Shown piece after piece: positions 3,480 to 62,928 of a stretch of DNA of 64,000 bases. A model generated the notes under the pieces. The model worked only from the letters and a program-made list of their open reading frames with translations, did not search any database and was not told the DNA's origin. Made by a program: the position numbers and the translations under genes. How positions within the stretch are numbered: the stretch's first letter is position 1; every line of letters starts with the position of its first letter. The stretch lies in sequence record OR234014.1. One strand, written 5' to 3'. This DNA is from Staphylococcus phage SAC.

Positions 3480-4839
3480 CAGTTACTACCCCTAGTTTCC
3501 TAGTACTTTAACACTAACTTAATAGTGGGCTTAGACTATATCTTTAATTGCCTGGTATGCAAGTTTTTGTTTTCGGTCTATATGAATATTATTATCTCGA
3601 TATAATGTTTTCATTAATTTTTTAGCTTTTTTACCTGTATAACCTATTCTATAAGAGGTAGAAGTTTTAGATATTGTAGGACATTTAAAACCTAATAAGT
3701 CTTCAATCCAACTACCTACTTCTTTTAAAAATTCAGGATGATTGTTAACTAAAGTTATTGACCATCTATTATTATAACATCCAATAGAACCATCACCATC
3801 AAACAATCCTCTTAAGTAATGTTTCCTTAAATCATAAGGTATGTCTTGTGTTAACCAATCTGTTTTTTTAGTTTTCATAGGTATTATACCATATTTAGCT
3901 AAATCATTACATAGTTTTTCATCGGTAACACTAAAAGTATACGTAGAATTTTCATTTTTTATATAATCTCTTTTTCTATGAGATTCATAAATTTTACTGT
4001 CTGAATTCAATTCTTTTTGAACTCTTTCTACTATTTCTTTATCAATTAACTCTAGTGTTAAGTAACATTGACCTTCTCTTCTATATCTAACACAACCGTC
4101 AGCCATCAATAAACCTAAAATATATGCTTTCTCTTCAGTATCAATTACTTCAAAGAAATCTTTATTAATATTTCTATTAACTCTCCTAGGTTGATAGTAA
4201 GATGTATCAATACCAAAGTCTCTTAATATTTTACTTATCTCTCTTGCATGTGTTGTATAGACTGCTTTTATCTCTGCAATAGTCATAGACTCCTCAGTGT
4301 ACATTCTTAAAATATCTTGTTTTTGTTTACTAGTCCATCTTCTCTTGCTATTTGTGTCAATATTAAACTCATCTAGTACTTTTTTAATTGTAAAGTAATG
4401 TGCATTATACTTTTTTTGTATTTCACTAAATTTCTTACCTTCTTGAAAGGATTTCACTATATCTTGTTTTTCTTCATTAGACCATACTCGTTTTACCATA
4501 TTATACTACTCTCCATTTTAAATAGATTTCGTAGGCAATTCCCACGTACTTCGGTTTCCCTACTCTACTCAGTTACTCACTAATACTTCTCAATATTAGC
4601 TACCTTTTCGATAGTCGTTGAACCTTCTCCATTTTACAGGAGCTTGGATGCTGATTACCTACACTATATAATATAACAGTTTAATAACTCGTTATACCAT
4701 ATAACTCATATACTTGTTATTTTTAACATTCACGCTTACCGTTTCCAGTTACGTTGTAGTTAACAAGTCTTTAAGGCTTCCCAGCAATTCACGTGGATTT
4801 GTAATAACTCATTATAAGCCATTGTGGCTATTTAAGGTA
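3480..4839 (-). mobile_element. Group I intron in recA carrying a LAGLIDADG homing endonuclease gene
   Basis: R element GTTCAACGACTA (plus-strand 4611-4622, reverse complement) and S element AAGATATAGTCT (3526-3537, reverse complement). The 5' exon ends in U (GGT). The internal guide sequence GCCAC pairs with exon AGTGGT. Omega-G lies at 3480. Confidence 0.75.
3531..4499 (-). CDS. LAGLIDADG homing endonuclease (two-motif), intron-encoded
   Basis: Two LAGLIDADG motifs: AYILGLLMADGCV and YLRGLFDGDGSI. Confidence 0.8.
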   Translation of the reverse strand: MVKRVWSNEEKQDIVKSFQEGKKFSEIQKKYNAHYFTIKKVLDEFNIDTNSKRRWTSKQKQDILRMYTEESMTIAEIKAVYTTHAREISKILRDFGIDTSYYQPRRVNRNINKDFFEVIDTEEKAYILGLLMADGCVRYRREGQCYLTLELIDKEIVERVQKELNSDSKIYESHRKRDYIKNENSTYTFSVTDEKLCNDLAKYGIIPMKTKKTDWLTQDIPYDLRKHYLRGLFDGDGSIGCYNNRWSITLVNNHPEFLKEVGSWIEDLLGFKCPTISKTSTSYRIGYTGKKAKKLMKTLYRDNNIHIDRKQKLAYQAIKDIV

Positions 4840-6867: not shown

Positions 6868-7557
6868 CTATATAACTTTGAAACTGTCAATATTATTTTT
6901 AATATATTCCGTTTTTTGTTTGTACTGCTCTTCAGTTAGTTTATCTGATTCATAGTAGTCTTTGATTTGTTGTAAGGCTAATTTATACTTAATATATCCT
7001 TTATACGAATTAAATTGCTTTATTAACTCTTCGTTGTATTCTACCATATCATTATATGTTAATCCTATCTCTATATCTGCATCTATAGGATACTGTCTTA
7101 ACTCACCATTAATTTTTATTTTTAAGAAATCATAAGGAAGGTTCTCCATTACATGGACAATAACTTTAGCCATAATATTAACTTCTTCAGGAGGTGAGTC
7201 TACTACAATACTATCATGAACAGTAGCTACTAACTTCGATTTCATATTCTTATTTTGAATAAAGTCGTCAATATAAGTAATAGCCATGTTAGTAAGGTAA
7301 CCACCTGTACCTTGAATAATCGTGTTAAAGGACTGTCTAAGACCCTCATTTTTAATCTTTTTATCTCTAGATTGTGCTGAGTGTATATATCTTCTGTGTC
7401 CATTCATTGTTTCTACATATCCATGTTTTTGAACAAACTCATGAGTTTCATCTATAGACTTCTTAATAGCAGGTTTATTAGAATAAAACTTATTAAATAT
7501 TTCAGTAGCTTCATCAACTGTCATATTATTTTTACCTGCAAACGAAAACTCTGACTC
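6868..7557 (-). CDS. polA: DNA polymerase I family (PolA), exon 2 (begins ESEFSFAGKNN before the annotated Met)
   Basis: Contains motif C (KLVATVHDSIVVD). Upstream in frame, ESEFSFAG follows omega-G at 7558. Confidence 0.7.
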   Translation of the reverse strand, partial: ESEFSFAGKNNMTVDEATEIFNKFYSNKPAIKKSIDETHEFVQKHGYVETMNGHRRYIHSAQSRDKKIKNEGLRQSFNTIIQGTGGYLTNMAITYIDDFIQNKNMKSKLVATVHDSIVVDSPPEEVNIMAKVIVHVMENLPYDFLKIKINGELRQYPIDADIEIGLTYNDMVEYNEELIKQFNSYKGYIKYKLALQQIKDYYESDKLTEEQYKQKTEYIKNNIDSFKVI

Positions 7558-8637
7558 CGTTTATACCCTCGGTTTCCCGATATTTATTAGGGGACTAGAC
7601 TATATCTTAAGTAAATACGTTACTATCTACTTCTAGGCTATTCCATGTAGGTATGAGCTACATGTACTCTACTCGGTTATATTGCAATAAGCCCTCTCGG
7701 CGTAAAGCTCACCTTTTGATAGTCGTTCGATAAAATAATTTAAGTGTTTAAGTGTAATCAAATCGTTCTCTTTTCTCTATTTTGAATGTAATCCCATAAC
7801 AATCTTCACCGGTTTCCATTTTTCTAAAGTTAGTGCCTGACGTAGGTATATTTAGTCTCTTTAGTAGCTTAGTTTTTACTCTATCATAATCAATTTCCAC
7901 ATGATTCTTATAAGCAACATAGTGAGGTGCATAAAGTTTAGAAGGGTTTTCTACAGGTTGATAATTATATTCTTGTAGTGTTTTAAAAACCCAGTTCTTA
8001 TGATGTTTTCTTTCCCCTCTAAGAACTGCAGAAATATGGCTTTGAATTAAGTTATGTTCCTTAGCAAATTTAGACTGATTGAAGAATATATATTCTTTAC
8101 CTGTAGGGTCTATACCTAATATCTTTTTACTTCTTGAAGGTACAAATCCTAAGTTCTCTTCTCTAGTAGCCCATTTACATTTATCTAAGCTATATACTTT
8201 ATTACCTAGTTCTTTAATATCCTTATCTAACACTAACTCACCATTTTTATACTTCTCTAAACTCCAACCATCAATTAACTCTACATCCTTAAGAAAGTTA
8301 TTAAAATTATGCCATCTATCGTCTACTGTTATTCCTAGTAATCCATAATATTTATATTCCTTACATTTAGGATTATAACATCTGTCTATCATATGAGACC
8401 ATACATGAGCTAATTTAGAATATAGCTTATTGTGATTATATCTTTCTCCTATTTTAAATTCTATTTAAATCATCCTTACTTATTAAATTACACTTAAATT
8501 ATTCTACACAGGATTAGCATTTTAAAGCCTTCCCTGTTAGCATAGTTCTTAACTACCATTTCCTGTAGCTCCTAACGTGAACTATACACCCTATACTCAA
8601 TAGGTTTACCTAGTTTTACTACGGCTATATTTTGTTA
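7558..8637 (-). mobile_element. Group I intron in the DNA polymerase gene carrying an HNH homing endonuclease gene
   Basis: The internal guide sequence GCCGTA pairs with exon TACGGT. R-like CGAACGACTA (7722-7731, reverse complement) and S element AAGATATAGTC (7597-7608, reverse complement). The 3' end GGGTATAAACG is identical to tail-tube intron 1. Confidence 0.75.
7748..8392 (-). CDS. HNH homing endonuclease (I-HmuI-like), intron-encoded
   Basis: NPKCKEYKYYGLLGI...SLDKCKWATREENLG matches the HNH_3-type motif of phage homing endonucleases. Confidence 0.7.
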   Translation of the reverse strand: MIDRCYNPKCKEYKYYGLLGITVDDRWHNFNNFLKDVELIDGWSLEKYKNGELVLDKDIKELGNKVYSLDKCKWATREENLGFVPSRSKKILGIDPTGKEYIFFNQSKFAKEHNLIQSHISAVLRGERKHHKNWVFKTLQEYNYQPVENPSKLYAPHYVAYKNHVEIDYDRVKTKLLKRLNIPTSGTNFRKMETGEDCYGITFKIEKRERFDYT

Positions 8638-11160: not shown

Positions 11161-11220
11161 GTTATTACCAATCCCTTCTTTAACTTAAATACAGTATAGC
11201 ATATCTAATCATAGTAGTCA

Positions 11221-11249
11221 ATAAAAAAAAGAGGAACTTAATCCTCTTT
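11221..11249 (-). terminator. rho-independent terminator downstream of the HU gene
   Basis: Stem AGAGGA/TCCTCT followed by T8 on the minus strand. Confidence 0.5.
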
Positions 11250-22155: not shown

Positions 22156-23187
22156 CTACAACACCGCCTTTAAACACTCTAGAAGCTCATCTTTTGCTTC
22201 TGGATAGTATTTGTCTGCATAACTAGAAGTAATCGTTATAGGGCTGTCAGACACGTCAGCGTCGACTCTCTTTTCTACCGTGTATTCTTTCTTCATTTGT
22301 ACTTGTACATTAGATTCATCTTCTGTTTTATCTAATTCAATTACTTTAGCTTGTTCTGGAGTACCAATAAACCTAATAAAGTGACCTTGGTTTACTAAAT
22401 CATTCATGTTATCTGGTACATTGTCACCTTGCACTGTAATAAACTTTCTAGTATCTAATGGAATGAACGTTGATGTTAGCTTATCTGTATCTATTAAATG
22501 TACACCATTAGCTTCTTGTTCATCTGAAAAGGATTGTTGCATTAGAGAACCACCATACATATGATTAGGGTTATTGTTTAAATATTGTCTTCTATGATAG
22601 TGACCAAGAAGAATAAAATCATATTTTTCTGGTAATAGGTCTTGGTAACCAAATGCACCTTCTAATCTGTGTGAGCCTTTACCTGTTAAACTATTCTCTA
22701 CGCCTAAATGTGCTACTAATATATTTACTTTATCTTTTTGGTAAGATTTTTTAATATACTCCTTAATTTCTTCTGTTTCATCTCCATAAGCACACATAGT
22801 TAATTGTACTTTACTAGAAAGTGAGTCACTACGTAAATCTTTAGTTACTTCCACATTAGGTAATGTTTCAAAGATATCAATACTAGATTCCGTATATAAA
22901 GAATTAGACACAGCATCATGATTTCCTCTAACCATATATACTTTAACATCTTGATTCTTAGCAAAGGTTTCAAATACCTTATTATATACTCTAGTATCTA
23001 CCGCATTTCTCTTATGGAATAAATCTCCTCCAAATATAACTTTAGCTTTATTTTCTCTAGCTAAATCAAATACTTTTTGTAATGTCTCAATTTGTTCTTT
23101 AAATCTATCATTACCATATTCTTCATCAGGTTTACTATAATTCGTAAACATATGAAAATGGCTATCTGTAAAAAATATAAATTTCAT
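22156..23187 (-). CDS. sbcD: SbcD/Mre11-like nuclease (calcineurin-like phosphoesterase)
   Basis: FFTDSHFH, GGDLFH and VRGNHD metallophosphatase motifs. Confidence 0.7.
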   Translation of the reverse strand: MKFIFFTDSHFHMFTNYSKPDEEYGNDRFKEQIETLQKVFDLARENKAKVIFGGDLFHKRNAVDTRVYNKVFETFAKNQDVKVYMVRGNHDAVSNSLYTESSIDIFETLPNVEVTKDLRSDSLSSKVQLTMCAYGDETEEIKEYIKKSYQKDKVNILVAHLGVENSLTGKGSHRLEGAFGYQDLLPEKYDFILLGHYHRRQYLNNNPNHMYGGSLMQQSFSDEQEANGVHLIDTDKLTSTFIPLDTRKFITVQGDNVPDNMNDLVNQGHFIRFIGTPEQAKVIELDKTEDESNVQVQMKKEYTVEKRVDADVSDSPITITSSYADKYYPEAKDELLECLKAVL

Positions 23188-23217
23188 TAGTGTCCTCCTT
23201 TAGTACGTTATGATAAA

Positions 23218-23246
23218 AGTATAACCCTTAACAAACATGTTGTCAA
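23218..23246 (-). promoter_or_regulatory. sigma-A-type promoter TTGACA-N17-TATACT upstream of sbcD
   Basis: Reverse complement reads cccTTGACAacatgtttgttaagggtTATACT. The -35 and spacer region is palindromic. Confidence 0.5.
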
Positions 23247-23256
23247 GGGTTTTGTT

Positions 23257-23946
23257 TTAATTTGTATTATTTAGTAATCTATCTTGTGCCATACTGAAGT
23301 ATTCTTCTGATAATTCACAACCAATAAAATTCCTATTTAACTTTTTACATGCGACACCTGTTGTTCCGCTTCCCATGAAGCAGTCTAGAACAATGTCTCC
23401 TTCATTAGTTAAGCACTCTAACAACCATTCCATAGCATATAAAGGTTTCTGTGTTGGGTGTCCTTTGCCCTGCTTTTCACTTCTAGGTGTTACACTTGTT
23501 TTAATACAAGGTCTTTCATATTTTTCATCTAAACGGTTAAAAGTCCATTTAGCTCCTTTTTTAACAAAATAAAGAGCAAATTCAGTATCAAAAATAAATC
23601 GTCTATCCCTATTACGAGGCATAGGGATAGATTTTTTCAGACGAATAACATCTTTAAATTCACAGCCTAATTCTTCCATAGTATTAATGATGAGTGTGAA
23701 TTGTCTCATGTCACAAAACACAACGATATTACCACCTTTTTTAACTTTTGGTATAGCTTTATTAATCCATAAAGTAGCTTCAAAATTTTTATCCCATTCC
23801 CCAAAATCAATACCAGCTCTACCCATAGTTGTGAACCTGTTCTCTTTTGCAATATTGTATGGTGGGTCTGTGATAATAGCATCTACACTACTATCTTCAA
23901 TTGTATCTAATAACTCTAAGCAATCCCCCTGTAATAATTTTATCAT
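23257..23946 (-). CDS. DNA methyltransferase (N6-adenine/N4-cytosine, beta class)
   Basis: DPPY (motif IV) lies N-terminal. FMGSGTT (motif I) and GHPTQKP lie C-terminal. Confidence 0.7.
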   Translation of the reverse strand: MIKLLQGDCLELLDTIEDSSVDAIITDPPYNIAKENRFTTMGRAGIDFGEWDKNFEATLWINKAIPKVKKGGNIVVFCDMRQFTLIINTMEELGCEFKDVIRLKKSIPMPRNRDRRFIFDTEFALYFVKKGAKWTFNRLDEKYERPCIKTSVTPRSEKQGKGHPTQKPLYAMEWLLECLTNEGDIVLDCFMGSGTTGVACKKLNRNFIGCELSEEYFSMAQDRLLNNTN

Positions 23947-24194
23947 TATTTTACTCCCTCTTCACTAATTTCTATAACATCATGATTAGCAAACTCCTGT
24001 AATTTAAACATATGATTGTCATTAATCTCATTTAGTAGCTTACTTGAATAAAAATGTATCAATTCACATACCTCATCTGTGTAAGGCTCTCCTCTTAATA
24101 TATCTTCAAGGATATCCATTGCTTCTTCCGTATCTACCTTTACGTGTCTTAAAAATTCAGTCTTATCTTGTAGTTCCTGTATTGTCATTTTCAT
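23946..24194 (-). CDS. hypothetical protein
   Basis: ORF of 82 aa. Confidence 0.35.
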   Translation of the reverse strand: MKMTIQELQDKTEFLRHVKVDTEEAMDILEDILRGEPYTDEVCELIHFYSSKLLNEINDNHMFKLQEFANHDVIEISEEGVK

Positions 24195-24645
24195 TGTTTA
24201 GTATCTCCTTATGTTTTTCTATTCTTTCACTGGCTAAATTATAGTATTCTTCGTCTAATTCAAAACCAATGTAATTGCGGTTAGTACTCATACAAGCAAT
24301 AGCAGTAGTGCCACTACCAATAAACCCATCTAAAACCACATCTCCTTTATTACTATGCTTCATAATACATTGTTTTATTAAATCTAATGGTTTTTCATTT
24401 TGGTGTAATTGTTTTTTACCACTTACCCTATCAAATTCCCATACATCAGTTAATCTTCTCCCATTAAAATGTTTTTTGCCCTTTACTACTAAAAATAAGA
24501 TTTCGTATTTTCTACCAAAAGAACCTTTTAAATCTCCTGCTGTATGATTGTTTTTTACCCATATAATCATATTTTTTATTTTAAATTTCTTCTCTAATTG
24601 TTGTTTAAAAAAATCTACTTTCTCTGATGAGCAGAACATATACAT
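24163..24645 (-). CDS. truncated DNA methyltransferase paralog lacking the catalytic DPPY motif
   Basis: Aligns to the C-terminal two thirds of 23257-23946 (MIIWVK, HQNEKPLDL, FIGSGTT). A stop codon lies immediately upstream of the ATG. Confidence 0.5.
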   Translation of the reverse strand: MYMFCSSEKVDFFKQQLEKKFKIKNMIIWVKNNHTAGDLKGSFGRKYEILFLVVKGKKHFNGRRLTDVWEFDRVSGKKQLHQNEKPLDLIKQCIMKHSNKGDVVLDGFIGSGTTAIACMSTNRNYIGFELDEEYYNLASERIEKHKEILNNENDNTGTTR

Positions 24646-24649
24646 AGCG

Positions 24650-24886
24650 CTAGTGTTTAATTTTATTGTTTGTTAATTCTAACTCTATAATACTTCTTTT
24701 AGGCTTAATATTAAACAATTTACAACCATACTTATCTATTACGTAATTATCCAATGTATTAAATATATCGGTTGAGACATCCTCTAACTCCTTTTCAGAG
24801 TACTTTGTGTTTATAGTCTCTATAAATCCGTGCTTATTAATGACTTTAAAGTTTTTTAATTTTACTTTTGCTTCATTTAAGTTCAA
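24650..24886 (-). CDS. hypothetical protein
   Basis: ORF of 78 aa with an RBS. Confidence 0.35.
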   Translation of the reverse strand: MNLNEAKVKLKNFKVINKHGFIETINTKYSEKELEDVSTDIFNTLDNYVIDKYGCKLFNIKPKRSIIELELTNNKIKH

Positions 24887-24917
24887 ATCTTACCACCTCT
24901 TTATTGTTTATAATAAA

Positions 24918-24946
24918 AGTATAAGCCTTAACAAATACATTGTCAA
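24918..24946 (-). promoter_or_regulatory. sigma-A-type promoter TTGACA-N17-TATACT (repeat of the 23218-23246 element)
   Basis: Reverse complement reads gccTTGACAatgtatttgttaaggctTATACT. Compensatory C/G to G/C change in the palindrome relative to the copy at 23218. Confidence 0.5.
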
Positions 24947-24955
24947 GGCTTTTTC

Positions 24956-25213
24956 TCAATTTTTTAACTTATATTCAATTGCTTTAATTACTTCTTGATG
25001 TGTATTGCAAGGTATAGCAGGTACTTTATTAGACATAACGTTGTACTTATATCCTGTTGTATTATTCCTTGCTATAGAGTCTAGTAATGTAACACATACA
25101 TTAGTTCCTTTTAATTGGAAGGTTCTTAATCCTGTATTTGTATAATCCCATTCTGCTTTATTACGTGTAAATGTTCTACGTACTTTTTTATAAAGCTTAG
25201 TAAAGTCATCCAT
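24956..25213 (-). CDS. hypothetical protein
   Basis: ORF of 85 aa. Confidence 0.35.
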   Translation of the reverse strand: MDDFTKLYKKVRRTFTRNKAEWDYTNTGLRTFQLKGTNVCVTLLDSIARNNTTGYKYNVMSNKVPAIPCNTHQEVIKAIEYKLKN

Positions 25214-26661
25214 TAAAAACTCAGCCCTCCAAAAGAATTATTAATAGCTTCAGCTTTATTAGGTTTTTCTTTAAATCTACTTTTATCTTCACCATTAAGT
25301 TCCGCTAGTATTTGCTTATGTTCTTCTGCCTCTTCTGGTGTTTCATCTCTAACAACCATTTTAGTAGGCTCTACTTTAAGATTAACAAATCTCTCACCTG
25401 TGTTTGAACTGTTTCTTACTTTGTCTAAGTACAATCTTAAAAAACCATTTTTAAATTCTTCATCTTTTTGGTTAACGGCAAAAGCAACCTCTACAGCATT
25501 GACAATCTTTCTACTTCCCTCAACATGTTCACTTGTAATAATTTCTGAACCATAAGCTGTTCTGTTTGTTTGTGCTAATGTCCAACAAACAAAATTGTAT
25601 TCTTGTGATAATTTTCGAATATCTTCAAAGATACGACCACCAGCATCTGATTCACTTTGATACTTAAGGTAAGGGTTACGCATAAGTTTAGGATAATCAA
25701 TAATAACAACATCTATATGCTTATCTTTCTTAATTGTTGTATTAATTATAATTTGTTCTAATTGGTTTGGTGTTACCTCACCAGGCATATGTTTAACGAT
25801 ATAAAAGTTACCTAGCAGTTGTCTATTCTTTTTATAATGTTCTTGTATCTTATTATAAGCATCTGTGTTTAAAGATAAGTCACCATTAAGTAATTGATTC
25901 TTTTGTACACCTACCATTTGTTGTTCCGCTCTTAATACCATTCTATCCATCTTTTCCTCTAGGGCAATATATAAAACATTTAAACCTTGTTTAACATAGT
26001 TCTTACCTAAATTACTTGCCATAAGAGACTTACCTCTACCTGTAGGTGCGATAACTAATCCTACTTCCCCTCTACCTATACCACCTTCAATTTGCTGGTC
26101 TATAGAATGGAAACCTGTAGAGTACTTATTAATACTTAAGTTGCTTAATAGTTCTCTCTTTTTATCTACGTCTTCAAAGAAGTCAATAAATTCTCCGTCA
26201 GTACCATTAATGTCACTGACTTCTATTTGTTTTAGTTTCTCTACTAGTTCAGGTAAGTTATCTGAGTCCTCTTGCTTATTCTCAGCTATGAACTTAACTA
26301 ATACTTCTTTAGACATTTCTGTTTTAATATACTTTTCTACTTCATAGTTTACAGAATCGTCTTTATTATTCATGTCTACTGTATATAAGCTATCTAAATA
26401 TTTTAATGTTTGTGTTACTTTTTCATCATCTTGTTTATCACTACCCATTAATTGCTCTACTTTAATAGCTAAAGATTCATTTGACATTTTATCAGCAATG
26501 TGTGCTGTTCTTTTTATAGCTGTGAATAAGTAACCCATGTTTTCCGATTCTGTAGCAAATAGACTTTTAGGTAACTTATCTAGTACTTCTCTTGCAAAAT
26601 GTATATCCTTCATAGACTTATGTAGGATAATCTCCTTAATTCGTTTACTCATATGTGTCAT
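25213..26661 (-). CDS. DnaB-like replicative DNA helicase
   Basis: RecA-fold C-terminal domain with Walker A (GLVIAPTGRGKS), preceded by a DnaB-like N-terminal domain. Confidence 0.6.
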   Translation of the reverse strand: MTHMSKRIKEIILHKSMKDIHFAREVLDKLPKSLFATESENMGYLFTAIKRTAHIADKMSNESLAIKVEQLMGSDKQDDEKVTQTLKYLDSLYTVDMNNKDDSVNYEVEKYIKTEMSKEVLVKFIAENKQEDSDNLPELVEKLKQIEVSDINGTDGEFIDFFEDVDKKRELLSNLSINKYSTGFHSIDQQIEGGIGRGEVGLVIAPTGRGKSLMASNLGKNYVKQGLNVLYIALEEKMDRMVLRAEQQMVGVQKNQLLNGDLSLNTDAYNKIQEHYKKNRQLLGNFYIVKHMPGEVTPNQLEQIIINTTIKKDKHIDVVIIDYPKLMRNPYLKYQSESDAGGRIFEDIRKLSQEYNFVCWTLAQTNRTAYGSEIITSEHVEGSRKIVNAVEVAFAVNQKDEEFKNGFLRLYLDKVRNSSNTGERFVNLKVEPTKMVVRDETPEEAEEHKQILAELNGEDKSRFKEKPNKAEAINNSFGGLSF

Positions 26662-29551: not shown

Positions 29552-29798
29552 CAATTATGTTACGATTAGGTTCGTTACTCCTAACCTTCTTGTAGTCTCC
29601 TACAAAGTTCAGACTATATCTTAACCATATCTAATGAGACTTAGGTTCTCCCTGTTTCCAATCACTTGATTGTACATAATAGTCGTTGCACCTTCCTAGT
29701 AATTTATTAAGCTTGGCTCATGATTGTCTCAAATGAGAGAGTTCCCATGAATTAAAGGAGTTACACTTATAATATTTCTACTATAAGGGGCAAAATTT
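29552..29798 (-). mobile_element. ORF-less group I intron in the helicase Walker A codons
   Basis: Exon 1 ends ATNAG (GGT) and exon 2 starts KTEV, restoring GxxxxGKT. R element GTTCAACGACTA (29680-29690 region, reverse complement) and S element GATATAGTCTG (29610-29623, reverse complement). The 5' end resembles the nrdE intron. Confidence 0.7.
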
Positions 29799-30236
29799 AC
29801 CTGCATTGGTAGCTTGCTTACATATACCATTATAATTGACTAAACTATTAAACACAGCTTCATACTGATAGTCACGTAATGTAATCTTACCTACGTTATT
29901 ATCTAGTAGCTGTATTTCATCATCAATATCTTCTTCAGCTAAAAAGCTTTCAGATTTTTCATCAATAATTTCGTATTGAAAGTTATGTCTTGATTGTAAC
30001 TCACCTAGTAATGTTATCATCTTAGGTAACAACCCACTAGGGAATTTGTTCTCAGCATAATCGTAGAAATCCACATAACCATCCCACACACCTCGTTTAA
30101 AAGCTAAGCTATGTTGATAGCCCTCTTTCTTAGCTCCTAACGTTTTATGAACACGCTTAAGTATGATATCTTTAATATACCCGTCACTTTCATCAAAATC
30201 TACATATGTATATATATTCTGTTGTCTTAATTGCAT
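29799..30236 (-). CDS. SF2 helicase, exon 1
   Basis: RDYQYEAV (Q/Ia-like motif) followed by ...KQATNAG (first half of Walker A). The annotated KFCPL-stop tail is intron read-through. Confidence 0.7.
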
Positions 30237-57224: not shown

Positions 57225-57248
57225 AGTTCATCATCTCCTTATATAACT

Positions 57249-57278
57249 ATAGTATTACAGTTATTTATAATTGTCAAT
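57249..57278 (-). promoter_or_regulatory. sigma-A-type promoter TTGACA-N18-TACTAT
   Basis: Reverse complement reads TTGACAattataaataactgtaaTACTAT, upstream of 56775-57224. Confidence 0.35.
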
Positions 57279-57398
57279 ACCTTTATGCTTATTTTTTCTA
57301 GAATATTTTGTTTTATCTTTTTTAATTCTTGTTGTTGGTTTAATTTTCCATGTTGCCCTTGAATTACTTACTTTACCTATTGTTTTCCTGTTTGTCAT
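57261..57398 (-). CDS. small basic protein (45 aa)
   Basis: GGAGG RBS six nt upstream of the ATG at 57398. Reads MTNRKTIGKVSNSRATWKIKPTTRIKKDKTKYSRKNKHKGIDNYK. Confidence 0.3.
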   Translation of the reverse strand: MTNRKTIGKVSNSRATWKIKPTTRIKKDKTKYSRKNKHKGIDNYK

Positions 57399-57451
57399 TT
57401 AGTACACCTCCTTTTATTTTTAATTATAATACAGTACTTCTAATAAAACAA

Positions 57452-57487
57452 GTATAAAAAAAGACCTAACTTTTATTGTTAGGTCTT
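57452..57487 (-). terminator. rho-independent terminator after the tail-tube gene
   Basis: Stem AAGACCTAAC/GTTAGGTCTT followed by T7 on the minus strand. Confidence 0.6.
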
Positions 57488-57497
57488 AATACGAAAT

Positions 57498-57524
57498 TTA
57501 AGTTCTAGCCTTATCTGATGCTGT
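57498..57524 (-). CDS. tail tube protein, exon 3 (TASDKART-stop)
   Basis: Follows omega-G at 57525 (...GGGTATAGAGG|ACAGCA). It completes a 142-aa protein. Confidence 0.65.
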   Translation of the reverse strand, partial: TASDKART

Positions 57525-57822
57525 CCTCTATACCCTATCTTTCGATATATTTTAAAGGGAGTAGACTATACCATAATCTTAATGTGTAACTAAGACTCAC
57601 TTATTATAGTCGTTGAAGCTTCCCACTCTCGTAGGCTTGCCTGCGTATCATCTATTTTACTGTACTTAGGGTTTAACCTTATACTATACTAGATATTTTT
57701 TCTGATTTCTCAACATTCAAGCTTACCCTTTCAGGTTACTTTGTAGTTATCTAGTCTTTAAGACTTTCACGCAATTTAAAGTGTTTTCTATGCTTGTCAC
57801 CAAACATAGCCTCTATTAGTTA
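57525..57822 (-). mobile_element. group I intron 2 of the tail-tube gene (no ORF)
   Basis: The 5' end TAACTAATAGAGG resembles intron 1. The internal guide sequence GAGG pairs with exon CCTT. R element GCTTCAACGACTATAA (57585 region, reverse complement). S-like element TATAGTCTAC (57555 region, reverse complement). Confidence 0.65.
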
Positions 57823-57896
57823 AAGGTAGCTAAACTCAATTTCTTCTGTTACAATTTCATTTGTCTGCCAAGTCTCGTTGTAGTTGTTTGCTGAAC
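57823..57896 (-). CDS. tail tube protein, exon 2 (74 nt: C-SANNYNETWQTNEIVTEEIEFSYL)
   Basis: Open frame flanked by intron ends. Joining with exon 1 creates a TGT Cys codon across the splice junction. Confidence 0.65.
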
Positions 57897-58198
57897 CGTT
57901 TATACCCTATCTTTCGATATATTTTAAAGGGACTAGACTATACCATAATCTTAATATGTAACTAAGACTTACCTATTATAGTCGTTGAACCTTCTCCATT
58001 TTACAGGAGCTTGGATGCTAATTACCAATTATGTAGTACTTAGGATTTAACCTTATACCATCTAACTAATTTTTTCTGATTTCTCAACATTCAAGCCTAG
58101 TCTTTCGACTTACTTTGTAGTTTAGTTAGCTTTACGGTGTTCTAGCAATTTAAGGTATTATTCAATGCACATCACTGTACAAGGGGTCTATTTAGTTA
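57897..58198 (-). mobile_element. group I intron 1 of the tail-tube gene (no ORF)
   Basis: The internal guide sequence GACC pairs with exon TGGTT. R element GTTCAACGACTA (57981-57992, reverse complement). GAAA-tetraloop hairpins. The 3' end GGGTATAAACG is identical to the pol intron. Confidence 0.65.
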
Positions 58199-62053: not shown

Positions 62054-62928
62054 TATAGCATTCCCCCAAAGAAACCACCTGAATGATTATCTTTAGATTC
62101 TTTTTTAGGGTCTTCTACCTGTATCTCTAAGTCCTCTTCTATACCATCATTAACTTTAAATGGCTCAGGTAGTACAATAACGTCTTCCCTTTTTAATAAT
62201 AGCTTCTGAGGTAAATTTTCAAACTTTGTATTAGGTTGATTAAATTTAGTATATTGGTATCGACTTTCTTTTAATATATCTGATACTACATATCTAAGTA
62301 CCATTAAAATATTTAAGGATATAGTTTTGTTTTCAAACTTAGCGTCCATGAATAATCTATTGTTCTCTATATTATAGTCATCTTCATAAACATTACCATC
62401 GTTAGATGTAATAAAGGTTACTTCTTTGACATCATAGTATAGAGGTATACCTTTTTGTATACGCTCTTTAGTAACATGGTATATAAGTTGTTGTGGCATC
62501 AATACTTCAGGAACAGTAAACCTGTCTCTATAAGATACTCGTTTTTCTAATTGTGTAGTTCCTATAGCTGTACCAGTATCTAAAATTCCTATATCTAAAT
62601 TGTTAGTTCCTTTTTCTTGAGATTGGATAGCCATTATTGTCTCTTTAGGAGGTAAATAGGCAATACCTTTACCGTGACACCTAGGACAATCTACTCTAGG
62701 ATGTCCTGTGTCAGGGTTAAGGCAAGGACAAAAGTAAGCCCTTTCCCACAGTACCTTTATACCTCTATCATTGACAAATCTTCTCATATCCTTAGTGTCA
62801 AACTCTAGTCTAGCTGTAGATAACTTTTGTTCTTGTTCATCTGCTTGTGTTGTAGATGTATACATAGTAGACTTATTAATTATATTAGAAGTATTATTAT
62901 TAGTACCTATCATAAAAGGTTTTTGCAT
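62053..62928 (-). CDS. structural protein with a Cys4 zinc-ribbon-like motif
   Basis: CPCLNPDTGHPRVDCPRCHG motif; 291 aa. Confidence 0.4.
   Translation of the reverse strand: MQKPFMIGTNNNTSNIINKSTMYTSTTQADEQEQKLSTARLEFDTKDMRRFVNDRGIKVLWERAYFCPCLNPDTGHPRVDCPRCHGKGIAYLPPKETIMAIQSQEKGTNNLDIGILDTGTAIGTTQLEKRVSYRDRFTVPEVLMPQQLIYHVTKERIQKGIPLYYDVKEVTFITSNDGNVYEDDYNIENNRLFMDAKFENKTISLNILMVLRYVVSDILKESRYQYTKFNQPNTKFENLPQKLLLKREDVIVLPEPFKVNDGIEEDLEIQVEDPKKESKDNHSGGFFGGML

Follow-up and report, generated by a model that had tools for sequence, protein, structure and literature searches.

A hairpin overlapping the promoters at both borders of a methyltransferase cassette in a staphylococcal Silviavirus

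Two copies of a palindromic promoter element lie on either side of a group of methyltransferase genes in Staphylococcus phage SAC (sequence record OR234014.1), of which a stretch of 64,000 nucleotides, called the window here, was analyzed. Why is a promoter built as a palindrome, and why does it stand at both ends of this one cassette? The original prediction proposed that the hairpin itself is selected and that the module combines an intact beta-class methyltransferase with a paralog lacking the catalytic DPPY motif. The explanation we consider quite probable as a whole is that each element is a composite of a transcription terminator and a promoter, that the two copies border an accessory cassette of two methyltransferase genes, and that one of these genes, MT63, is a deletion pseudogene. 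The anatomy of the repeats, the homologies, the deletion, the covarying stem, and the differences in the cassette from phage to phage can be read directly from the genomes compared.

Approximately 2.4 kb around the cassette are 99.8%–99.9% identical to Staphylococcus phages Stau2 and vB_SauM-HM01 (Herelleviridae, Twortvirinae, Silviavirus), and by this identity the window is that of a Stau2-like Staphylococcus Silviavirus. The features of the original prediction were found at their predicted positions, but their strand had to be corrected, since the minus strand carries all genes of the region and both promoters. In the order of transcription, these are the helicase gene, open reading frame (ORF) 61, repeat copy 2, ORF62, the truncated methyltransferase gene MT63, ORF64, the intact methyltransferase gene MT65, repeat copy 1, and the gene for an SbcD-like nuclease.

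Anatomy of the two repeats

The direct repeats at 23208–23266 and 24908–24966 are 59 nt long and 80% identical, which bears out the prediction that repeats of about 50 nt bracket the module. Their palindromic core, CCTTGACAA-N5-TTGTTAAGG, is present without mismatches at only these two sites in the window, both on the minus strand, whereas 0.09 sites are expected. (The search relisted both sites on the plus strand with two mismatches, giving four matches in all.) Each copy carries the promoter sequence TTGACA-N17-TATACT, which agrees with the consensus at 11 of 12 positions and is located upstream of a gene with a Shine–Dalgarno sequence. Exact matches to the promoter pattern number six, compared with 0.37 expected.

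Both copies are predicted to form a 12-bp stem with a 5-nt loop, with folding energies of −15 to −17 kcal/mol and z-scores of −3.5 to −4.5 relative to shuffled sequences. Copy 2 reads AAGCCUUGACAA-UGUAU-UUGUUAAGGCUU and forms 12 pairs, one of them G·U. Copy 1 reads AACCCUUGACAA-CAUGU-UUGUUAAGGGUU and begins 6 nt past the stop codon of MT65. Each stem is followed by AUACUUUUAU. The predicted exchange of a C–G pair for a G–C pair between the two copies is real. In both copies, the −35 box lies inside the 5′ arm of the stem and the −10 box inside the U-rich tail. A terminator scan flags both hairpins as terminator-like, and the stems start 5–6 nt after the upstream stop codons. The palindrome thus has the form of an intrinsic terminator stem for the upstream gene that overlaps a promoter. 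Neither the terminator nor the role of the two copies as borders of an accessory cassette was recognized in the original prediction. The features of the locus are as follows, in transcription order.

26661..25213, minus strand: DnaB-like (replicative) helicase gene, first in order and followed by ORF61
24956..25213, minus strand: ORF61, homolog of the Stau2 gene, 85 residues, function not assigned (PHROG 11461); its stop codon is 5 nt before hairpin copy 2
24908..24966, minus strand: repeat copy 2, cassette-proximal composite terminator/promoter, 80% identical to copy 1
24923..24951, minus strand: hairpin copy 2 (fold z-scores −4.2 and −4.5)
24918..24946, minus strand: promoter copy 2, sigma-A type (−35 TTGACA at 24946..24941; −10 TATACT at 24923..24918)
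24650..24886, minus strand: ORF62′, 78 residues, TTG start, good Shine–Dalgarno sequence, function not assigned (PHROG 12198)
24646..24652, minus strand: junction left by the 251-bp deletion, with Stau2 as reference (sense strand ...AAACACT|AGCGCT...)
24163..24645, minus strand: MT63 remnant (Stau2 ORF63), 160 residues, second beta-class methyltransferase, partial Pfam match
23946..24194, minus strand: ORF64, 82 residues, function not assigned (PHROG 9725)
23257..23946, minus strand: MT65, intact beta-class DNA methyltransferase, 229 residues (TDPPY ... FMGSGTT; Pfam and PDB matches)
23208..23266, minus strand: repeat copy 1, SbcD-proximal composite terminator/promoter, 59-nt direct repeat
23223..23251, minus strand: hairpin copy 1 (fold z-scores −3.5 and −4.4)
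23218..23246, minus strand: promoter copy 1, sigma-A type, TTGACA-N17-TATACT, upstream of the SbcD-like nuclease gene
22156..23187, minus strand: SbcD/Mre11-like recombination nuclease gene, 343 residues (Metallophos profile match)

A strong promoter-spanning hairpin (z-scores −4.4 and −4.5) is found at only these two of the 12 promoter-like sites in the window, which rules out such hairpins as a general property of the promoters of this phage. The promoter-like site on the plus strand at 62426 has a z-score of −3.1. The 55-nt core of copy 1 (23208–23262) is at least 99% identical in 40 phage records, and Silviavirus genomes have about two copies of the element each, located exclusively at the cassette borders except in phage MR003. 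In the GenBank record of phage Remus both sites are annotated as "promoter," and the Remus and Romulus records describe these as "discovered using MEME." Those annotations cover only the 28- to 29-nt promoter, whereas the hairpin and its terminator role are unannotated.

A separate site at 11193–11235 (minus strand) has the promoter TTGACT-N17-TATACT directly after a run of eight T residues (TTCCTCTTTTTTTTATTGACT). This has the look of a −35 box placed directly against a terminator tail, and the Kayvirus transcription tables show the same juxtaposition for t126/p127 and t144/p145.

Covariation of the stem across genera

Elements of the same geometry, made from different stem sequences, are present in Silviavirus, Twortvirus, Kayvirus, Sepunavirus, a Mammaliicoccus phage, and siphovirus SEP9. 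Those outside Silviavirus include the following, together with a differently placed hairpin from Baoshanvirus.

Kayvirus: TATACCACTTGACAT-N5-ATGTTAGGTGGTATAAT
Sepunavirus: ATACCACTTGACTT-N5-AAGTTAAGTGGTATAAT
Twort: AAGCCTTGACA-N7-TGTCAGGGCTTATAAT
Mammaliicoccus phage: GATACCACTTGACAT-N5-ATGTTGAGTGGTATAAT
Baoshanvirus BS1: shifted hairpin with the −35 box in its loop and a T-run behind it

When 15 distinct sequences are aligned, 97.8% of the cells are paired, compared with 80% after columns are shuffled and no more than 46% when each position is matched with a slid partner. Changes on both sides are seen in five of the 12 pairs, and three more vary only between Watson–Crick and G·U pairing. The G·U wobbles are confined to the coding strand. 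Because the opposite strand would have A·C mismatches at these positions, the pattern favors a hairpin in coding-strand RNA over an operator bound by protein or a cruciform in DNA. Judged by this covariation, the stem itself is under selection beyond the promoter hexamers, as had been proposed, and the palindrome is indeed conserved in related phages.

Only one element lies between helicase and sbcD in Kayvirus and Twort, and in other lineages unrelated small genes are inserted just downstream of the element. In SEP1 (locus L014, 228–263 and 2208–2243) and loci L003–L007, which are of the Sepunavirus type, two near-identical hairpin promoters flank a block of ORF49, ORF50, and sbcD, an arrangement that parallels the two copies of Silviavirus. 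Among six loci found through their SbcD protein (80%–84% identity), sbcD is coupled directly to the upstream gene with no element in front of it, and in five of the six the sbcD-containing block has hairpin promoters of the Sepunavirus type on both sides. An exact scan of IMG/VR for CCTTGACAA-N5-TTGTTAAGG gave five hits, which are chance matches in unrelated contexts with no −10 box.

We also weighed a functional link between the hairpin and SbcD, a palindrome nuclease that would act on a DNA cruciform, but did not adopt it: at 12 bp the stem is short, and its G·T pairs would be stable in RNA but not in DNA.

The methyltransferase cassette and its decay

The ORF at 23257–23946 had been called a complete beta-class methyltransferase, and this assignment holds. 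MT65 matches the Pfam family PF01555 (N6_N4_Mtase) over profile positions 1–220 of 221, with an E-value of 7e-45 and 154 bits, which is above the gathering score. Its motifs are in the order of the beta type, with TDPPY (motif IV) preceding FMGSGTT (motif I, which binds S-adenosylmethionine, AdoMet). The nearest relative of solved structure is Helicobacter pylori M1.HpyAVI (PDB 5HFJ/5HEK), to which MT65 can be aligned over its full length (E-value 7e-64), with the DPPY motif, the FxGxG motif, and the motif order all shared. M1.HpyAVI is a dimeric beta-class N6-adenine methyltransferase that targets GAGG and related sites (PMC5173035). Unlike M1.HpyAVI, MT65 is an orphan: its neighborhood contains no restriction gene. 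On the basis of these matches, MT65 is a complete beta-class DNA methyltransferase and probably modifies N6 of adenine, whereas GAGG as its target site is only a guess.

MT65 may shield phage DNA from a host restriction enzyme. Across the window (1–64000), GATC is absent (∼132 sites expected), as are GGCC (15 expected) and GGNCC, while CCGG (20 expected) and CGCG are each present once. GAGG/CCTC is not depleted, with 204 sites observed and 209 expected. Such strong avoidance of restriction sites would suit a phage in which some sites are avoided and others methylated.

The second ORF in the cassette lacks DPPY, as predicted, and no [DNS]PP[YFWH] motif is present in any frame of 24500–25100. 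Its product of 160 residues matches PF01555 at profile positions 53–220 only (E-value 7e-32, 111 bits) and keeps motif I, FIGSGTT. The alignment with MT65 was predicted to cover the C-terminal two-thirds, but BLASTP confines it to the last 73 residues, where identity is 47%. MT63 and MT65 should for this reason be regarded as different enzymes and not as recent paralogs.

Alignment with Stau2 and HM01 reveals a single clean gap of 251 nt in the window, where the region spans 2,401 bp as opposed to 2,652 bp in every close relative. In Stau2, ORF63 is an enzyme of 239 residues that has DPPY and the N-terminus MELELNKIYNEDYLEGMKKIPDNSIDLIVTDPPY. The deleted stretch runs from ...LRK and a stop codon through a ribosome-binding site to MELELNKIY...TDPPY...KNNS. 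As a consequence, ORF62 has lost its last three codons and gained a new TAG stop codon made at the junction. MT63 has lost its ribosome-binding site, its start codon, and its first ∼79 codons, about a third of the protein, including DPPY. The present start of the remnant is a former internal methionine codon, and no Shine–Dalgarno sequence precedes this ATG. The two sides of the junction share an imperfect microhomology of 7 nt, AAACA[C/A]T (six of the seven match), of the sort that is typical of slippage or illegitimate recombination. Not one record among 50,697 phage genomes contains the deletion junction in one piece. As far as sequence can tell, the 160-residue ORF is a pseudogene remnant of the second methyltransferase, created by a private, microhomology-mediated deletion of 251 bp. 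A DPPY exon located upstream and spliced to position 24645 was also considered. It is ruled out, since motif IV is absent from every frame and comparison with the relatives reveals nothing more than a deletion.

The cassette contains two conserved small ORFs, of 78 and 82 residues, in place of the three that had been predicted. ORF64 and the 3′ end of MT63 share 32 nt, and the MT65 start codon begins with the last base of ORF64. Searches of Pfam, PHROGs, and NCBIfam yielded no function for ORF61, ORF62, or ORF64.

To compare the integrity of the cassette, 12 Silviavirus genomes were used, the window included. MT63 is intact in only four of them, as listed below.

EW15, SSP49, StAP1, and phiRNIID: intact
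HM01: nonsense codon
CIFT32 and Koomba-kaat_1: frameshift at DPPY
Remus, SapYZU04, and LSA2308: different deletions
Stau2 (locus L001, 2764–3483): full length, with AdoMet motif FIGSD instead of FIGSG
Window: 251-bp deletion

Because its motif I reads FIGSD, Stau2 ORF63 may be inactive even though it appears complete. MT65 is broken in three of the genomes (SapYZU04, CIFT32, and LSA2308) and intact in the other nine. By their sequences, the two methyltransferase genes show a pattern typical of dispensable accessory genes under weak selection.

The original prediction left two options for the truncated ORF, an inactive remnant or a noncatalytic partner that binds DNA or confers specificity. For the latter to be correct, the 160-residue product would work with MT65 as a subunit for DNA binding, specificity, or dimerization. 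Its frame is open, it keeps FIGSGTT and part of the target-recognition region, and its ATG is 4 nt past the new stop codon of ORF62, so that re-initiation is conceivable. Dimerization is also known for beta-class enzymes such as M1.HpyAVI. However, the catalytic loop and the first ∼79 residues are gone, the ATG has no Shine–Dalgarno sequence, and the remnant shares just the short 47%-identical segment with MT65. Moreover, the truncating deletion is found in no other deposited genome, and in sister phages MT63 is broken independently in at least seven other, unrelated ways or is altogether absent. Such decay across the genus argues against a specialized noncatalytic partner, which we regard as extremely unlikely, and the inactive remnant is the option that stands.

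Phage MR003, whose flanks are 98.5% identical, has no cassette at all and exactly one element between ORF61 and sbcD. It is alone in having this empty site among 65 matching records. In MR003 the junction falls within a run of four A residues at the foot of the 5′ arm of the stem, which is the edge of the repeat, and is outside the identical blocks of 9–12 nt. Other cassette deletions among Silviavirus genomes lie inside genes. A homolog of ORF63 with 91% DNA identity occurs in siphovirus SEP9 (locus L026, 2158–2888) and in Sepunavirus Quidividi (locus L025, 1–2900), in each case directly behind the hairpin promoter ACACCACTTGACTT-ATTAA-AAGTTGAGTGGTATAAT. Quidividi has a run of four methyltransferase genes. 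This distribution suggests that methylase genes may move horizontally among staphylococcal phages. Given MR003, the insertions in other lineages, and the SEP9 and Quidividi homologs, the elements appear to mark the borders of exchangeable modules.

Two other features of the window lie outside the cassette. A group I catalytic intron at 29589–29808 (minus strand) matches the full Rfam model RF00028 with 91 bits and is the sole Rfam hit in the window at the gathering threshold, far from the cassette. In addition, 57225–58187 is an ORF-free stretch of ∼960 bp with a tandem repeat of ∼372 bp (57515, 57887, and 58170). The 94-nt cores of this repeat are 95% identical and share the motif GGTATAGTCTAGTCCC...GGGTATA, with no match in Rfam. 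Partial copies of the same repeat are located at 7557–7610, 3520–3546, and 4611–4659.

Transcriptional role and comparison with known systems

An orthologous element has been mapped by RNA-seq in Kayvirus vB_SauM-515A1, where GTTTAATTTTTTAAAATATACCACTTGACATTTTATATGTTAGGTGGTATAATTATTTTATAAAGAA is listed as terminator t129 (Table S3 of Kornienko et al. 2020, PMC7698491). Within t129, the sequence TTGACA-TTTTATATGTTAGGTGG-TATAAT is the early promoter p130 at the head of transcription unit TU26 (Table S2; PMC7698491). The t129/p130 element resembles those of the window in its orthologous position between helicase and sbcD, in a stem that spans the −35 box, in its 5-nt loop, and in having the −10 box at the 3′ foot of the stem. 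It differs in that its stem, TATACCACTTGACAT / ATGTTAGGTGGTATA, has 15 pairs with two wobbles, and in being a single copy at a junction that has no methyltransferase cassette. Neither the palindrome nor the overlap of terminator and promoter is mentioned in the text of that paper (PMC7698491) or in a later review.

By analogy with this orthologous element, we infer that termination and initiation take place at these exact sites in the present phage. A "moron"-like accessory cassette consisting of ORF62, MT63, ORF64, and MT65 would have been inserted between ORF61 and the gene for the SbcD-like nuclease. In transcripts arriving from upstream, the RNA hairpin and its U-rich tail would cause termination or attenuation, while the same DNA would serve as a host sigma-A promoter that restarts transcription. 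Copy 2 would end the ORF61 transcript and drive ORF62 through MT65. Copy 1 would end the cassette transcript and drive sbcD and the genes downstream.

Several observations weigh against this explanation. An interruption in the U-tail after the stem (UUAUACUUUUAU) may make termination incomplete. Covariation was judged from a small set of 15 sequences that are related to each other, and the filter used in finding some of them accepted only promoter matches folding at −10 kcal/mol or lower, which favors paired examples. In copy 2 of Remus the swapped pair is broken, with G opposite A, and the helicase/sbcD junctions of Golestan-100 and of IMG/VR locus L008 have no such hairpin. Finally, MT65 matches no curated NCBIfam equivalog model at cut-off from which a target site could be read.

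Other purposes for the palindrome can be imagined. A dimeric phage or host regulator could bind it as an operator over the −35 box and spacer and thereby switch both promoters. This proposal would account for a near-perfect inverted repeat centered in a promoter and for copy 1 of CIFT32, which is a perfect 26-nt palindrome, and a symmetric exchange of C and G is also expected of a two-fold symmetric site. However, a protein site would conserve bases, whereas the stem sequence shifts across genera with its pairing kept, and most copies contain wobbles that pair only in the RNA of the coding strand. The placement of the −35 box in the loop of the BS1 hairpin, with the T-run next to it, and the terminator activity of the Kayvirus ortholog also speak against an operator, which has little chance of being correct.

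A stronger case can be made that the repeats are primarily recombination joints, perhaps acting as DNA hairpins, at which the cassette is gained, lost, or exchanged, and that the transcription signals are secondary. The DNA missing from MR003 corresponds exactly to the stretch between the elements, with the junction at the 5′ base of the stem. The MT63 homologs of SEP9 and Quidividi are likewise preceded by a hairpin promoter, different insertions are found just downstream of the element in other genera, and promoter-early stem-loops (PeSLs) of T4-type phages behave in this manner (PMC2839356, PMC4122927). Against this, homologous exchange is expected to leave its junction in the identical blocks, not in the A-run of MR003. 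Since the junction is outside these blocks, MR003 could represent an ancestral empty site. In addition, there are only two copies per genome rather than the ∼50 PeSLs of T4-type genomes, and the strand-specific G·U pairs favor RNA over DNA. We consider a primary role in recombination possible but doubtful. Such a role is nevertheless compatible with the composite terminator/promoter and does not exclude it.

Both components of the locus, a methylase cassette and a terminator/promoter, are of known kinds and ordinary for phages. A modest novelty lies in the covariation, across genera, of a terminator stem built around a −35 box, and in the PeSL-like placement of this element on either side of a methylase cassette, in a phage with a Gram-positive host. 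For annotation, the 160-residue "DNA methyltransferase" ORF would become a pseudogene fragment and the two "promoters" bifunctional terminator/promoters. Silviavirus isolates vary in their working antirestriction methylases, which may affect host range and is relevant to phage therapy. The overlap of terminator stem and promoter would illustrate how tightly transcription signals are packed in a large lytic phage of Gram-positive bacteria, and the element offers a compact, insulated expression part.

The closest known systems are the PeSLs, in which a sigma-70 promoter is combined with a stem-loop terminator. Located beside variable genes, they mediate the shuffling of modules (Arbiol et al. 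2010, PMC2839356; Comeau et al. 2014, PMC4122927). As in the window, a PeSL is a small intergenic composite of a strong sigma-70-type promoter and a terminator stem-loop, placed after the stop codon of one gene and ahead of the next gene's Shine–Dalgarno sequence. G·T pairs may occur in its stem-loop, which can also overlap the −35 or −10 box. PeSLs also flank nonessential variable genes, and they are where indels that distinguish close relatives have their ends. In MR003 exactly the DNA between the elements is missing, through either loss or an absence of gain, with the junction at the edge of the repeat. In contrast, the element described here belongs to Herelleviridae with a Gram-positive host, and its stem is not polyG/polyC. 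Each Silviavirus genome has two copies (two in the 64-kb window) rather than ∼50, so that the abundance characteristic of PeSLs, which are dispersed in many copies and most frequent in hyperplastic regions, is lacking. A further trait of PeSLs is the formation of mini-circles through recombination between elements. We have not filed it as a member of the PeSLs because its copies are few, because the MR003 junction lies in an A-run, and because MR003 may have lost the cassette or never had it. In the literature searched, the term PeSL was not found joined to staphylococcal or Herelleviridae phages, and no work specific to Silviavirus methylases was found.

A more speculative proposal, which we put forward tentatively and think rather unlikely, is that in Twortvirinae and other staphylococcal phages a covarying terminator-in-promoter hairpin forms a portable module boundary, with MT63 and MT65 possibly being a strand-specific pair of enzymes. 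Accessory cassettes, those with methyltransferase genes among them, may then travel with one element between myo- and siphoviruses and be gained or lost at the foot of the hairpin. A pair acting on the two strands of one asymmetric site (GAGG/CCTC-like) would explain why one of the enzymes is frequently dispensable. If the elements do serve as exchange points, then the PeSL idea extends beyond T4-type phages, and a portable boundary of this kind would be the Gram-positive counterpart of the T4-type PeSL system.

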